From: an uncultured Candidatus Rokubacteria bacterium
GTDB taxonomy: Bacteria > Methylomirabilota > Methylomirabilia > Rokubacteriales > DASRDR01
Reading direction: 5' to 3'
DNA length: 64,000 nt
Assembly (NCBI GenBank): GCA_963826115.1
Contig: CAWGVS010000012.1
Coordinates: 256,001-320,000 of the forward strand
The notes under the pieces are model-generated. The model ran no database searches. It saw nothing but the letters and a program-made list of their open reading frames with translations, and was not told where the DNA came from. The stretch's first letter is position 1, and every line of letters starts with the position of its first letter. Made by a program: the position numbers and the translations under genes. This document shows, in pieces, positions 53,146 to 58,163 of this stretch.

Positions 53146-54177
<1,032 letters not shown>

Positions 54178-54442
54178 CTAACCATCGCCTCCTGGGACGG
54201 ACTCAACGTCGGCTTCGACGATAGCACAACGCCGTTCGGGGGACCAAGTCTGGTTCTCAAGATATTTTCGCCTGTGTCCACCATAGGTTACACCCCTCAT
54301 CCGGGGGGTCATGCCTGGTCTCGACGGCGGAGAGCCACAAGGTGGGCCTCGCCTGACCCGGTCACGGGGCCCGCTTGACACCCCGCGCACCGTGCGCCCA
54401 TCCTCGGCCGGCGCCGGCCCACGCCCGGCGCTGCGCCGCACG

Positions 54443-54925
54443 ATGGAGCCCGACGCCGCTCGCCAGGCCGAAGAGTTCTTCCGCGCCGGTCACGCCGCGC
54501 ATCTGCGCGGCGACCTGGACGACGCGATCGAACTCTACCACCGGTCTCTCGCCTGCGTGCCCACCGCGGAGGCCCACACGTTTCTCGGCTGGTCCCTGTC
54601 CGCGAAGGGAGACTACGAGGGGGCCATCCGGGAGTGCCACCGGGCGATCGCGATCGATCCGGACTTCGGGAACCCCTACAACGACATCGGCTCCTACCTG
54701 ATCGCGCTGGGCCGGCCCATCGACGCGGTCCCGTGGCTCCGGAAGGCGATGAGCGCAGGGCGCTACGAGCCCCGGCACTATCCGCACGTGAATCTCGCCC
54801 GCGTCTACGTGAAGCTCGGACACATCGACGCGGCCATCGCCCAGCTGCGCGTGGCGCTGGCGATCACGCCTCAGTACCGGCCGGCTCGCACCGAGCTCCA
54901 CCGTCTGCTCGGCCTGCTGAACTGA
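54443..54925 (+). CDS. Tetratricopeptide repeat protein
   Basis: AEAHTFLGW, AI..DP.FGNPYNDIG; TTGACA-N18-CATCCT promoter candidate at 54375-54404. Confidence 0.85.
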   Translation: MEPDAARQAEEFFRAGHAAHLRGDLDDAIELYHRSLACVPTAEAHTFLGWSLSAKGDYEGAIRECHRAIAIDPDFGNPYNDIGSYLIALGRPIDAVPWLRKAMSAGRYEPRHYPHVNLARVYVKLGHIDAAIAQLRVALAITPQYRPARTELHRLLGLLN

Positions 54926-54949
54926 ACTGAGCGCGCGGGACGCGCCGGG

Positions 54950-55302
54950 CCAGAAAATAAGGAGCCCCGAGGGAGTCTGCGGCCCACTGCCGCGTCCGGC
55001 GCAGGCCGCCCCGCAGGTGAGGTCGCGGGACCCTCGGGGCCGGTGGTGCCTGGATCCTCCCAGGCGAGCCACCCTCGCTACTTAACGGGTGCGCACGACC
55101 TAGGAGGTCACCACCTCACAACTCACCGGTTGACTGCCACTCACGGCTGGACCACCTCCTTTCTCGGCGCACCCACCACGCGGGTCCAAGCACCCGCCAC
55201 CGAGAACCGGCCGCCGATTGCCGGCCCGCGGCTCGATCCGCTCCGCCCGGCTCTTCCGTCGGGTTCGGCGCGCGAGGGGGCTGTGTAAACCCCGATCGAC
55301 TC
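54950..55302 (-). ncRNA. Candidate structured RNA containing a 16S rRNA 3'-end-complementary segment and a short ORF (no family recognised)
   Basis: Intergenic; upstream promoter; at least 7 pairing elements; ends in a 10-bp closing stem followed by TCCTTATTTTCT. Confidence 0.55.
55100..55144 (-). CDS. Putative 14-aa peptide MSGSQPVSCEVVTS
   Basis: GTG 9 nt after AGAAAGGAGGT, TAG stop at 55102-55100. Confidence 0.45.
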   Translation of the reverse strand: MSGSQPVSCEVVTS

Positions 55303-55308
55303 GCGGAC

Positions 55309-55338
55309 ATCCTACGCTCGGCCCGGAAAGATTGTCTA
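55309..55338 (-). promoter_or_regulatory. Sigma-70-type promoter for the candidate RNA
   Basis: TAGACA-N18-TAGGAT, overlapping the HNH stop codon. Confidence 0.55.
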
Positions 55339-55659
55339 CGGGATTCTGTCCGCCTCATCCGCCAGGCGCTCGAGGTAGGCGGCCCACTCGACGGGGAGCA
55401 GGTACTTCTTCGCGGCGTTGCACGCGCGGCACGCGGGCACGAGGTTCGACCGGACGGAACGCCCGCCCCGGACCAGCGGGACGCGATGATCCATCGTGAG
55501 CTCCCGCGCCGGCGTGGGCTGTCCGCAGTACTCGCATCGTTCCCGGCCCAGTCGGCGCTTCCACCAGGCGCTCGCTCGGATCTCGCGGGCCCGGGCCTTC
55601 TCGCGCCGGACCTCCTCCGCGGTGACCGGGCTGACGAAGCCGCCCGCGGGCGGCGTCAG
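55336..55659 (-). CDS. Small HNH endonuclease; probable CTG start
   Basis: WW....C.YC....LTMDH.VP..RGG.S...N.V.AC..CN..K; CTG overlaps the upstream TGA. Confidence 0.85.
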   Translation of the reverse strand: MTPPAGGFVSPVTAEEVRREKARAREIRASAWWKRRLGRERCEYCGQPTPARELTMDHRVPLVRGGRSVRSNLVPACRACNAAKKYLLPVEWAAYLERLADEADRIP

Positions 55660-56282
55660 CGCGTCAGGACTCGCGCCAGGAGGTCGGACGGGTGGTAGTT
55701 CGTCGCGGGGTTCCATTGCTGGGGGCAGGCCGAGACCACGGCCAGGCAGTCCACGAACGCGCGCAGCAGTACCCAGTCCCCCGCCTCGGTCCGGGGCGGG
55801 CCGAACGTCACGCGCCCGTCCGGGCGCACGGCGACGTTCATGAAGAAGTTCACGGGTTGCGGGACGATCGGACAGCTCGCGCCGAGAGTCCGCAGGGCCG
55901 CGTGGAAGTTCTCGGCGCACGAGGCGTGTCCGGGGACGTGGTACTGCGCGTAGCGGGCCGGGTCGCAGGCCGCGAAGAGCATGTCGTGGACGCCGGGCGT
56001 CCGGTCCTCCTCGAACTGAAGCAGGGGCCGCCGGAGGCTCGAGAAGAACGACTGGCCGACCTCGGGGAACAGCCGGTCGATCTGGACGCGCGTGTGGGAC
56101 GCCGAGAGGTACTCGGCGGGATTCGCGGCGGCGAGCGTGAAGAAGTCCGCGCACCCGCGCCCCTCCACGTCCACGATCTGGACGTACTCGCCGGCCGCCA
56201 CTCGCAGTCCCACGCCGGTCCCGGCGGGGATGGAGAACTCTCGGCCGATCTTCAGGGCGTCGGCGCGCGCCGGATGGCCCAC
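55656..56282 (-). CDS. DUF1989 / urea carboxylase-associated family protein
   Basis: D.EG...ADF, HD....C....Y, C..N, N.FMNV, SACPQ. Confidence 0.85.
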   Translation of the reverse strand: MGHPARADALKIGREFSIPAGTGVGLRVAAGEYVQIVDVEGRGCADFFTLAAANPAEYLSASHTRVQIDRLFPEVGQSFFSSLRRPLLQFEEDRTPGVHDMLFAACDPARYAQYHVPGHASCAENFHAALRTLGASCPIVPQPVNFFMNVAVRPDGRVTFGPPRTEAGDWVLLRAFVDCLAVVSACPQQWNPATNYHPSDLLARVLTR

Positions 56283-56307
56283 GATGCCCTCCCCGTCCCG
56301 CGGGGGA

Positions 56308-57846
56308 TCAGGACGCCGGGCGCGCCGGGCGCTTCTCGAGCGCCAGGTCCTGGGCCCGCCCCGCCGGGACCAGGAACGCCGAGAGGAGCGCCAAGGACGC
56401 GATCCCGAGACCGACGAGGAACACGGCGTGCAGCGCGTTGGCGAGTCCCTGGCTGAACGCGCTCAGCACCGCCGGCGGGAGCGCGCTCCGGAGGGTCGGC
56501 TCGATCAGCGCGTCCGGGTGCGCGATGAGCGCTTCGAGCTGGGTCCGGGCGGGGCCGTCGAGCCCCCCCAGCACGGTCCGGAGCTGCCGGCCAAGCTCGG
56601 CGGACAGCACGGCGCCCATCACGGCCACGCCGACGGCCCCCCCGATCGACCGGAAGAAGGTGGTCGCGGAGGTCGCCGCGCCGAGATCCGCCTTGGGCAC
56701 CGCGTTCTGCACCGCCAGGAGGAGCGGCACCATGATGAGCCCCATCCCCATGCCCGCCAGCAGCATGTTCCGCCACGTGGCGGCCTGGGTCGTGCTGAGC
56801 CCCATGTGGCTCATGAGCAGGAACGCGACCGCGAGGCACATCATCCCGCCGACGACCGGCCAGCGGTAGCCGACGCGGAGCAGAAGCCGCGCCGACACGA
56901 CGGAGAAGGTCACCCACCCGAGGACGAACGGGGTCAGCGCTGTTCCCGCCTCCGTCGCCGTGCCGCCGAGCACGCCCTGGACGAAGAGGGGAATGAAGGA
57001 GATGGTGCCGAACATCGCCATGCCCGCCAGGAACCCGGTGACGGCCGCCGCCCGGAACATGCGGTTGGCGAACAGCCGGAGCGGCAGGAGAGGCTCCGGG
57101 GCGTGGCGCTCCCAGCGGGCGAACTCGACGAGCAGCCCCACCGAGAGGGCGGCCAGCACGGCGTGGCCGAGTCCGAACCGTCCCGCCCGGCCGCCCTCCA
57201 CGAGCGCGGCGAGGAGGCCCGCCAGGCCGGCGGTCAGCAGCGCGGCGCCGCGGAAGTCGACCTTCACCCCGCGCCGCGGGCGGTCGGTCCCGGCCAGCGC
57301 GACCCAGAGGATCGCGCCGGCGAGGAGCCCGAACGGGATGTTGACGAAGAACACCCAGTGCCAGGACAGCCGGTCGGTCAGGAAGCCGCCGATGAGCGGC
57401 CCGACGATCGACGCGAGTCCCCACGTGGCCGAGAAGTACCCCTGCATGCGCGCGCGCTGCTCGAGGCCGTAGAGGTCCGCGATGATCGTCATGCCGAGCG
57501 GGATGAGCGCCCCGCCGCCCAGCCCCTGGAGCGTCCGGCAAGCGATCAGGAACGCCATCGACGTCGAGAGGCCCGAGAGGACCGACCCGACGAGGAAGAT
57601 CGTGAGCCCCGAGAGGTACACGCTCCGGCGCCCGTAGAGGTCCGCGAACCGCCCCCAGAGCGGCATCGAGATGGTCGCGGCGAGGATGTACGCCGAGAAC
57701 ACCCACGAGTAGATGGCGAGGCCCCCGAGGCTCGCGATCACCGTCGGCATCGCGGTCGCGACGGCGGTCGACTCCATGGCGCCGAGGAAGAGCCCCAGCA
57801 TGACGCCCGAGACGACGAGCCCGCGGCGCGGCGGGGCCGCGGTCAT
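56308..57846 (-). CDS. MFS drug-resistance transporter (DHA2/EmrB-QacA family)
   Basis: TAMPT, W..S.Y, G..ADLYGRR, R.LQG.GGG, GP..GG, W.W.F..N.P.G, EP.LP..LF. Confidence 0.9.
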   Translation of the reverse strand: MTAAPPRRGLVVSGVMLGLFLGAMESTAVATAMPTVIASLGGLAIYSWVFSAYILAATISMPLWGRFADLYGRRSVYLSGLTIFLVGSVLSGLSTSMAFLIACRTLQGLGGGALIPLGMTIIADLYGLEQRARMQGYFSATWGLASIVGPLIGGFLTDRLSWHWVFFVNIPFGLLAGAILWVALAGTDRPRRGVKVDFRGAALLTAGLAGLLAALVEGGRAGRFGLGHAVLAALSVGLLVEFARWERHAPEPLLPLRLFANRMFRAAAVTGFLAGMAMFGTISFIPLFVQGVLGGTATEAGTALTPFVLGWVTFSVVSARLLLRVGYRWPVVGGMMCLAVAFLLMSHMGLSTTQAATWRNMLLAGMGMGLIMVPLLLAVQNAVPKADLGAATSATTFFRSIGGAVGVAVMGAVLSAELGRQLRTVLGGLDGPARTQLEALIAHPDALIEPTLRSALPPAVLSAFSQGLANALHAVFLVGLGIASLALLSAFLVPAGRAQDLALEKRPARPAS

Positions 57847-58163
57847 GCGTCGGCCCCTCGCCGCGTGGTGGCGCACTGGGCGCAGGGACACCGGCCGCGC
57901 AGCTCGACGTAGGGGATCGTCGACGCGTGATCGTCCTGCCACTGGACGCGGAGCGCCGACGGCTCGCGCCGGATCTCCGTCGGCCAGGCCTCCCCGGCCG
58001 GCGGACAGGCGCCGCACGGGCACGCCGCGCGCAGCATGGTGAACGGGTAGATGCTCCCGTGCCGGTCCTGCCAGGTCACGCCGAGCGCGTAGCGCCCCAC
58101 GAGGGACACGGCGTCGGGGCGATTCGGGTCGGCGCCGACCAGCGGGAGGAGCGAGCGGGCCAT
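57843..58163 (-). CDS. Tandem DUF971 (GBBH-N-like metal-binding) protein
   Basis: Two copies of W.D.H.S..P...LR..CPC..C; VGRYAL. Confidence 0.75.
   Translation of the reverse strand: MARSLLPLVGADPNRPDAVSLVGRYALGVTWQDRHGSIYPFTMLRAACPCGACPPAGEAWPTEIRREPSALRVQWQDDHASTIPYVELRGRCPCAQCATTRRGADA

Follow-up and report, generated by a model that had tools for sequence, protein, structure and literature searches.

The small RNA (sRNA) Ms_IGR-5, reportedly first described in Mycobacterium smegmatis in 2013, stands in Rfam as an "Actinobacteria sRNA" (family RF02471). Transfer-messenger RNA (tmRNA) acts on ribosomes and has neither a Shine-Dalgarno (SD) site nor a start codon; 6S RNA and Ms1 titrate RNA polymerase. 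Ms_IGR-5 has been validated by RNA-seq in Streptomyces lividans (PMC8079986), forms an sRNA transcription unit in Streptomyces avermitilis (PMC8780764), carries ribosome footprints on its homologues in Mycobacterium abscessus and M. smegmatis (PMC4974804), and was re-detected in a 2023 paper as ncMSMEG15794c, longer than first reported (PMC10454040). Two further papers describe rnTrpL/peTrpL of Sinorhizobium as a ribosome-dependent attenuator RNA that is released as a trans-acting sRNA (PMC6614838, PMC7298713). Here, we describe an element from an uncultured Candidatus Rokubacteria bacterium, located within a 64,000-nt stretch of DNA (contig CAWGVS010000012.1, positions 256,001 to 320,000) that we refer to as "the window". 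The element occupies the minus strand from ~55302 to ~54952, corresponding to an RNA of ~350 nt, and, judged by its sequence, is a remote, multi-phylum relative of Ms_IGR-5. Its conserved core is a micro open reading frame (ORF) driven by the longest possible SD pairing and woven into long-range helices. A literature search that did not cover the original 2013 description or any supplementary tables found no functional study of Ms_IGR-5 or RF02471; outside that same description, it found no paper on the micro-ORF or the complementarity to 16S rRNA, and none on pairing of the 3' half of the ORF with the strand preceding the terminator.

The relationship to RF02471 was assessed by scanning positions 54000-56500 with Rfam models. 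The RF02471 model scores 19.6 bits (E = 0.11) in this region, short of its curated gathering score of 45, and in a search of the whole genome the element is the best hit (20 bits, E = 0.05). The alignment spans the full model, positions 1-184, with matches in the SD block, in the sequence UGUGAGGUGG, and in the CACC-terminator segment. For comparison, true members at all four actinobacterial loci score between 63.6 and 175.8 bits, with ~176 bits in Mycobacterium, and full-length 1-184 matches of 21.9-41.3 bits were obtained at 9 of the 14 non-actinobacterial loci that were rescanned. The family cut-off was reached in none of 14 control genomes, which included Escherichia coli, Bacillus subtilis, and Corynebacterium glutamicum. 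Because the score is sub-threshold, yet belongs to a graded series of full-length matches that reaches true members, we classify the element as a remote homologue that is a non-member by the Rfam criterion. A previous examination of this DNA, made from the letters alone and referred to here as the sequence-only reading, had called the RNA novel. That description holds in the sense that no Rfam family is matched at threshold, and fails in the sense that an existing family, RF02471, is matched below it (19.6-20 versus 45 bits). Two other sub-threshold hits from the 54000-56500 scan at E ≤ 10, M23 (19.8 bits) and L31-Actinobacteria (17.8 bits), were judged to be chance matches.

The element and Ms_IGR-5 share the same order of blocks: GGAGGUG(A/G)UCC, a short ORF, UGUGAGGUGG, a hairpin at the stop codon, CAG(G/Y)CACC, and a terminator. 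Both are stand-alone and single copy. There are also clear differences. The RNA of the window has an additional 5' domain of ~130 nt, comprising the helices P0 and P1, and a three-way terminator domain; its peptide is of the type MxxxxPV(S/I)CEVV(T/A)S, whereas that of Ms_IGR-5 is Mxxx(W/R)TCEVAxx; and, unlike what the family name implies, the window form is found outside Actinobacteria. The element is thus a new, larger (~350 nt), non-actinobacterial variant of the Ms_IGR-5 kind.

Conservation was examined at several taxonomic depths. A 401-nt query covering the element has one match in its own genome, and a single copy was found in each of five other genomes tested. Across the order, the query matched 38 of 41 relatives and all 27 good-quality genomes (a tally that includes the unpublished genome G038), with identity dropping from 95% to ~70%. 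An exact two-motif pattern was sought in 200 phylum genomes with a completeness of ≥80% and matched 142 of them, while the same pattern written backwards gave 0 matches; the 142/200 tally includes the unpublished genomes G038, G072, G103, and G205. By family, the pattern is present in 14/15 (f1), 113/127 (f2), and 11/12 (f8) genomes, and absent from all 16 genomes of f7 and all 19 of f13, two families of the same class in which many genomes are ≥93% complete; either loss or divergence of the motifs would account for this absence. Every matching genome has one copy apart from G167, an order genome in which contig C9 has two copies of the element core (872364-872410 and 874954-875000), 2.5 kb apart on opposite strands.

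We built a pattern on the two blocks that the element has in common with the Rfam consensus and, using one genome per species, retrieved at least 119 stretches. Among the matches listed, those closest to the window come from records labelled Candidatus Rokubacteria or Methylomirabilota; those in Actinomycetota come from Mycobacterium, Streptomyces, Kitasatospora, Pseudonocardia, Brachybacterium, and others; and the other labels are Binatia, Thermodesulfobacteriota, Desulfuromonadales, Nitrospiria, Terriglobia/Acidoferrum, and Gemmatimonadales. The family is far older and wider than its name implies: it is present in no fewer than six or seven phyla, and its carriers are mostly soil bacteria. 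One contig labelled Gammaproteobacteria (L111) has a typical mycobacterial-type element with the peptide MVDLWTCEVAAS and is probably mis-binned. In total, 156 loci were analysed: 37 collected by BLAST within the order and 119 collected by the pattern among the matches listed, three of which duplicate order loci. In the 119 pattern loci, invariance of the SD block and of UGUGAGGUGG arises by construction, because the selecting pattern fixes both.

The core of the element begins with a maximal SD site. The 16S rRNA encoded in the same genome ends in 21 nt whose reverse complement, allowing for one G.U pair, is the stretch at 55164-55144 (minus strand, as for all parts of the element). Counting G.U pairs, the 37 order loci have a contiguous complementarity of 17-23 nt and a further 26 non-actinobacterial loci one of 17-24 nt; in 90 actinobacterial loci it spans 12-21 nt, with 17 the commonest value. 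Such lengths raise the question of whether the RNA is instead an antisense partner of the 16S 3' end that binds immature or idle 30S subunits, in 3'-end maturation, protection, or hibernation, with no productive translation. The 21-nt complementarity of the window, which we take to reach the 3' strand of 16S helix 45, and the 17-24 nt found across 63 non-actinobacterial loci are as such an activity would predict. However, the part held in common across phyla approximates the free tail alone, as the commonest actinobacterial value of 17 nt with G.U pairs included illustrates, and a purely antisense role would have no need of a strictly conserved start, frame, and stop. We consider the antisense role unlikely. 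What all loci share corresponds approximately to the free 16S 3' tail, and we read the block as a maximal SD site rather than a general antisense RNA.

Downstream of the SD site is a 14-codon micro-ORF at 55100..55144 (MSGSQPVSCEVVTS), with a GTG start at 55144-42 and a TAG stop at 55102-00. Of the 156 loci, 153 retain an ORF of 12-15 codons that starts 7-13 nt past GGAGG; the three loci in which it is missing (L043, L047, and L063) were rejected as chance pattern hits. Start codons are ATG (55), GTG (39), and TTG (60), with no CTG, and stop codons are TAG (133), TGA (12), and TAA (10). The frame shows three regularities. First, differences in ORF length are always whole codons. Second, the 1-nt difference between the two main families sits exactly before the start codon. 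Third, across the 153 loci there are always three codons from Cys-Glu-Val (CEV) to the stop. The CEV codons plus one G make up the invariant block UGUGAGGUGG (55111..55120), which includes a second SD-like sequence, GAGGUGG. This block appears in upper case in the Rfam consensus and is invariant in 37/37 BLAST-collected loci, with no synonymous change even at third positions. By contrast, the N-terminal half of the peptide is free to vary, residues 2-7 widely so. The absence of synonymous change in UGUGAGGUGG, together with the variable N-terminal half, means that the act of translation and the RNA sequence, not the peptide, appear to be what is selected.

The evidence from the ORF also bears on whether the element is simply the gene of a bioactive peptide of 12-15 residues, with the RNA structure tuning its synthesis, in which case the RNA would be dual-function or purely coding. 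Conservation of start, stop, and frame in 153/156 loci across phyla fits such a gene, as do the published ribosome footprints on homologues (PMC4974804). On the other side, the C-E-V residues are the sole constant ones and are fixed at the nucleotide level, third positions included, while residues 2-7 vary widely; the C-terminal codons covary as RNA base pairs; and no conserved processing, export, or partner gene is found nearby. A peptide gene is accordingly, in our judgement, a doubtful explanation. The sequence-only reading had proposed that the RNA interacts with ribosomes, and this is probably correct: the 21-nt complementarity to the 16S 3' end and the conserved micro-ORF both point to it, and so do the same footprints on the actinobacterial homologues.

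The predominance of TAG among the stop codons (133/153 loci) is an observation in its own right, given that high-GC genomes usually make little use of this codon. One possible cause of the bias is the palindromic CCUAGG/CUAG of the hairpin around the stop codon. An RF1 sensor, suggested by the same bias, was ruled out because TGA is used in 12 loci. A cysteine attenuator was likewise ruled out: the number of Cys codons is just 1-2, and cysteine genes are missing from the surroundings.

The RNA folds more stably than shuffled versions of itself. For 54945-55310, the predicted minimum free energy reaches -200.3 kcal/mol, versus -183.5 +/- 5.5 kcal/mol after shuffling (z = -3.07, with 0/100 shuffles as low). 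Covariation was analysed with a model of 63 base pairs in 51 non-actinobacterial sequences, using 500 shuffled alignments and slid versions of the model as controls. In this model, 90.5% of cells are paired, compared with 84.8% after shuffling. Two-sided changes occur in 28 of the 63 pairs versus 14.7 in shuffles (0/500) and a maximum of 21 in slid controls, and the number of two-sided cells is 180 versus 59.5, with a slid maximum of 53. Compensatory changes thus support most of the helices.

All of the complementary segments listed in the sequence-only reading are present where it placed them, and several of the helices that it drew are borne out. The 5' hairpin P0 (55272..55304), formed by GCGAG/CTCGC plus GGGG/CCCC with the loop UUUACACAG, recurs at 43 of 62 non-actinobacterial loci as a CACA-loop hairpin whose stems differ in sequence, versus 7/62 shuffled. 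The GACCT/AGGTC hairpin is supported as P4 (55097..55109), a GACC/GGTC stem with the stop codon in its loop, in which two of the four pairs covary (GC21/UA21 and GC28/AU15). The CCTGG/CCAGG hairpin corresponds to P6 (55048..55065, GCCUGG/CCAGGC), which is 92.1% paired and has one of six pairs changed on both sides. A perfect 10-bp stem at 55040-55031/54973-54964, proposed to close a branched domain, is found as a stem of 10/11 bp (55041-31/54973-63) with 5 of 11 pairs covarying. The terminator domain that it closes (54952..55041) contains two inner hairpins, T1 (55029-25:55014-10; 3/5 pairs covarying) and T2 (55008-04:54984-80; 5/5), and past it lies a U-rich tail (54963-54952). An additional hairpin in the 5' domain, P1 (55199..55232), pairs 55232-29 with 55202-199 and 55226-20 with 55211-05; it is 94.1% paired, with two-sided changes in 7 of 11 pairs.

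Other proposed helices fared less well. The stem TTCTCGGTG/CGCCGAGAA has its two central pairs broken in 30 and 34 of the 51 rows, and column 71, one of the two central columns, covaries instead with the upstream sequence GAGCCNCGG. The internal GCGAG/CTCGC hairpin enclosed by GGTGGTG/CACCACC is 50% paired and is not upheld, and GCGGGT/ACCCGC is weak at 58%. In two relatives, L025 (2078-2430) and L113, large insertions (~75 nt and ~150 nt) separate the stop-codon hairpin from the CCUGG hairpin; this region tolerates expansion.

The fold also incorporates the ORF. In the long-range helix P_LR (55042..55115), codons 10-12 of the ORF (55115-55109) pair with 55048-55042, joining the 3' half of the ORF to the strand just 5' of the terminator stem. 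This helix, GGTGGTG/CACCACC in the sequence-only reading, is nearly invariant in the 51 non-actinobacterial sequences, where GGTGGT/ACCACC is 98.7% paired. Its equivalent in 89 actinobacterial sequences is a helix of 9 bp, 97.3% paired, in which four of nine pairs covary; there are 33 two-sided cells versus 4.0 shuffled (0/500), and slid controls reach at most 12. The Rfam model of Ms_IGR-5 draws this region differently, leaving CAGYCACC unpaired and pairing the SD block with the end of the ORF. In Actinobacteria, pairing between the ORF and CAGYCACC covaries, whereas the Rfam-style SD:ORF-end helix has no covariation support and was rejected as no better than shuffles (162/500). The Rfam structure of Ms_IGR-5 is therefore probably wrong in one helix.

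A second contact of the ORF is a candidate pseudoknot (55016..55127) between codons 6-7, GGUGA (55127-23), and the T1 loop, UCACC (55020-16). Both pentamers are exact in 44 of the 51 rows, and covariation is not visible there because both are invariant. The corresponding contact in Actinobacteria, GGAC:GUCC, reaches 92.1% pairing; it has 13 two-sided cells, compared with 6.2 after shuffling (0/500), and reads GGAU:AUCC in three rows. With this modest support, a contact of codons 6-7 with the loop of the terminator domain is likely. A third long-range contact is suggested by the P0 loop, in which CACAG (55281-55285) is complementary to the (C/U)UGUG (55117-55121) that opens the invariant ORF block; the CACAG loop could be a partner of the invariant CUGUG. 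In Actinobacteria, ACACA sits just upstream of the SD site instead of in a 5' hairpin loop, and CACA occurs ≤22 nt upstream of the SD site in 77 of 90 actinobacterial loci.

An intricate, covarying fold with multiway junctions, invariant unpaired nucleotides, and an embedded RBS (ribosome-binding site) and ORF is also what would be expected of an orphan riboswitch-like RNA, in which binding of a small molecule or protein decides whether the micro-ORF is translated. Nevertheless, this reading lacks both a candidate ligand and a conserved gene under regulation, and the scan of 54000-56500 gave no similarity to an Rfam riboswitch at E ≤ 10. We regard this explanation as very unlikely.

The element has the attributes of an independent transcription unit. 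It is housed in a gap of 410 nt, flanked on one side by a small gene for an HNH endonuclease (Pfam PF01844; 55635-55336 on the minus strand) and on the other by a convergent, plus-strand TPR gene that ends at 54925. Reading along the minus strand, the gap contains a sigma-70-like promoter, the hairpin with loop UUUACACAG, more helices, the SD-like block, and the 14-codon ORF, followed by three hairpins, the long stem closing the branched domain, and the U-rich tail. The promoter, TAGACA-18-TAGGAT (55309..55338), has its -35 hexamer TAGACA at 55338-55333, overlapping the HNH stop codon, and its -10 hexamer TAGGAT at 55314-55309, implying a transcription start near 55302. A pattern scan found one site at 55338..55309 on this strand versus 0.0 expected in shuffles, in agreement with the promoter placed there by the sequence-only reading. 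A comparison of 20 loci from the family and its neighbours shows that neither hexamer has been lost (TAGACA/TTGGACA, and TAGGAT in 19 rows with TACACT in L019), while the spacer is free to vary. Hexamers kept across genera over a variable spacer are what a real promoter would be expected to show. With a conserved promoter and terminator of its own, the element is a stand-alone gene for a structured RNA, as the claim of a self-contained transcript had held.

The element is expressed: contigs from four soil RNA libraries of four studies fall on it. A 322-nt contig covers 54961-55260, with a sequencing adapter joined at 55260; contigs of 235 and 211 nt cover 54971-55205 and 55039-55250, respectively; and short contigs reach up to 55282. 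These contigs give neither strand, true ends, nor abundance. Their 3' limit (54961) agrees with termination in the U tail, and their 5' limit is consistent either with processing near 55260 or with less efficient mapping to the initial 40 nt, where conservation is lower. The HNH-side flank (55303-55700) is without cover in the four RNA runs, which is not evidence for a discrete transcript, and the TPR-side flank is covered in one of them (X3). RNA runs X21-X23 contained next to none of the sampled words of the element.

Genes flanking the element differ between lineages. In four actinobacterial genomes, the neighbours are SelO/hydrolase, aminotransferase/PknH-like, purK-purE, and pdxH/PAS protein genes, and those in one Binatia genome differ again. 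Within the order, HNH is upstream of the element in 33 of 37 loci and mreB is present in 16 of 37, whereas in other phyla HNH is absent from the 300-nt flanks, the lone partial hit (L057) being a duplicate of an order locus. A HEARO/IscB-like pairing with HNH was accordingly set aside as local synteny, since the adjacency is confined to the order. A block consisting of an MFS transporter gene, DUF1989, and the small HNH gene lies upstream of the element (55336-57900 in the window, minus strand) and is kept through the family, with DUF1989 in 17/37 loci. Two relatives have sub-threshold matches to the cspA thermoregulator (RF01766) ~1-2 kb from the element: L031 (1137-1444 and 1531-1973) and L022 (3968-4282), with scores of 52.7, 45, and 35.9 bits, below the family cut-off of 78. 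These matches suggest that there are cold-shock genes near the element in L031 and L022.

The presence of mreB bears on the claim of the sequence-only reading that the element is not a leader. Across phyla the claim stands, because the neighbours differ; within the order it needs qualification, as mreB is downstream on the same strand, ~175 and ~340 nt past the element in L010 and L009, neither of which has the TPR gene. It is conceivable, then, that the element is a cis-acting leader or attenuator controlling read-through into an mreB-mreC operon. The order HNH-element-mreB on one strand recurs among the fetched loci, and a conserved short ORF followed by a covarying terminator stem and a U-rich tail is the classic layout of an attenuator. 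However, no conserved operon lies directly downstream: in the window, the convergent TPR gene intervenes between the element and mreB; the neighbours are unrelated in the four actinobacterial genomes and the Binatia genome; and HNH is not adjacent (≤300 nt) in other phyla. No alternative antiterminator pairing was seen by eye, although no dedicated search was made. Control of mreB is, in our view, highly improbable.

We propose instead, with the balance of evidence about even, that the element is a ribosome-engaging RNA in which fold and translation are mutually exclusive. Three features shown by the analysis underlie this proposal. First, the single-stranded 5' part presents an RBS complementary to the whole of the free 16S 3' tail. 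Second, the ORF of 12-15 codons that this site serves has a frame, start, and stop that are conserved across phyla. Third, the ORF serves as the central strand of the fold: its 3' half pairs before the terminator, its middle is complementary to a loop in the terminator domain, and a hairpin loop holds its stop codon. Binding of a 30S subunit and passage of a ribosome through codons 5-13 would open the long-range helices. Because a translating ribosome must melt the contacts made by the ORF, the RNA would switch back and forth between two forms, one compact and untranslated, the other open and occupied by a ribosome. In this way, the RNA could sense, report, or titrate and buffer free ribosomes and translational capacity. 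The output would probably be in trans, since no downstream gene is conserved and neighbours differ, and the peptide would probably be incidental.

A more far-reaching version of the proposal is offered tentatively, as a possibility rather than an expectation: the element may be a ribosome-gated, housekeeping-like RNA, an mRNA mimic that captures the whole free 16S 3' tail and is translated for 12-15 codons through the core of its own tertiary fold, with ribosome occupancy switching between two shapes, in Actinomycetota, Methylomirabilota, Binatia, and parts of Desulfobacterota, Nitrospirota, Acidobacteriota, and Gemmatimonadota.

Several observations weigh against the proposal of a ribosome-engaging relative of Ms_IGR-5. 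The Rfam score of the window is below the RF02471 cut-off, and 5 of the 14 rescanned non-actinobacterial loci (L075, L113, L097, L013, and L019) have no RF02471 hit at E ≤ 1. Most of the loci (119/156) were chosen by a pattern that fixes the SD block and UGUGAGGUGG. P_LR has no two-sided change in the non-actinobacterial set, and pairing of the SD block with CCUCCU (55160-54:55108-02) is 99.2% paired but invariant, and so is indistinguishable from plain sequence conservation. At 148 of 153 loci, GGAGG and the start codon lie 10-12 nt apart, a spacing that exceeds the usual optimum. To these may be added the downstream, same-strand mreB of the order and the limits of the RNA contigs noted above. 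Lastly, the output in trans is something that we purely infer.

Comparison with better-characterized RNAs places the element in context. Similarities to tmRNA include the size of ~350 nt, a short internal ORF between helices, contacts resembling pseudoknots, and the proposed action on ribosomes. The element differs in having an SD site and a start codon, and in having no tRNA-like domain. An ARAGORN tRNA/tmRNA scan of 54000-56500 found no tRNA, tmRNA, or tRNA-like domain, and there is no RF00023 match in that region; a canonical tmRNA (178 bits) is encoded elsewhere on the same contig. The distinction from tmRNA drawn in the sequence-only reading is thus well founded. Like rnTrpL, the element is a small RNA with a terminator at its end, a leader ORF of ~14 codons, and a presumed action in trans; unlike rnTrpL, it has no runs of regulatory codons and no conserved downstream operon, and it has a much larger fold and a maximal SD site. 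With 6S RNA and Ms1, it shares the character of a conserved, single-copy RNA of 200-350 nt and the proposed titration of a core machine. The differences are that its proposed target is the ribosome, that it has a predicted translated ORF, and that it has no 6S-like central bubble or Rfam match. In its mode of action, the element would most resemble a leader-peptide attenuator RNA that has been set free, or a 6S RNA equivalent directed at the ribosome.

The wide distribution, the larger form, and the ORF-centred core of the element together give a concrete hypothesis, that of a translation-gated RNA switch, which is testable in M. smegmatis and Streptomyces. The element also provides a marker RNA for annotating uncultured lineages. 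If the hypothesis is true, cells that carry the RNA would use it to read out or buffer their free ribosome capacity, giving the ribosome a counterpart to what 6S RNA is for RNA polymerase.

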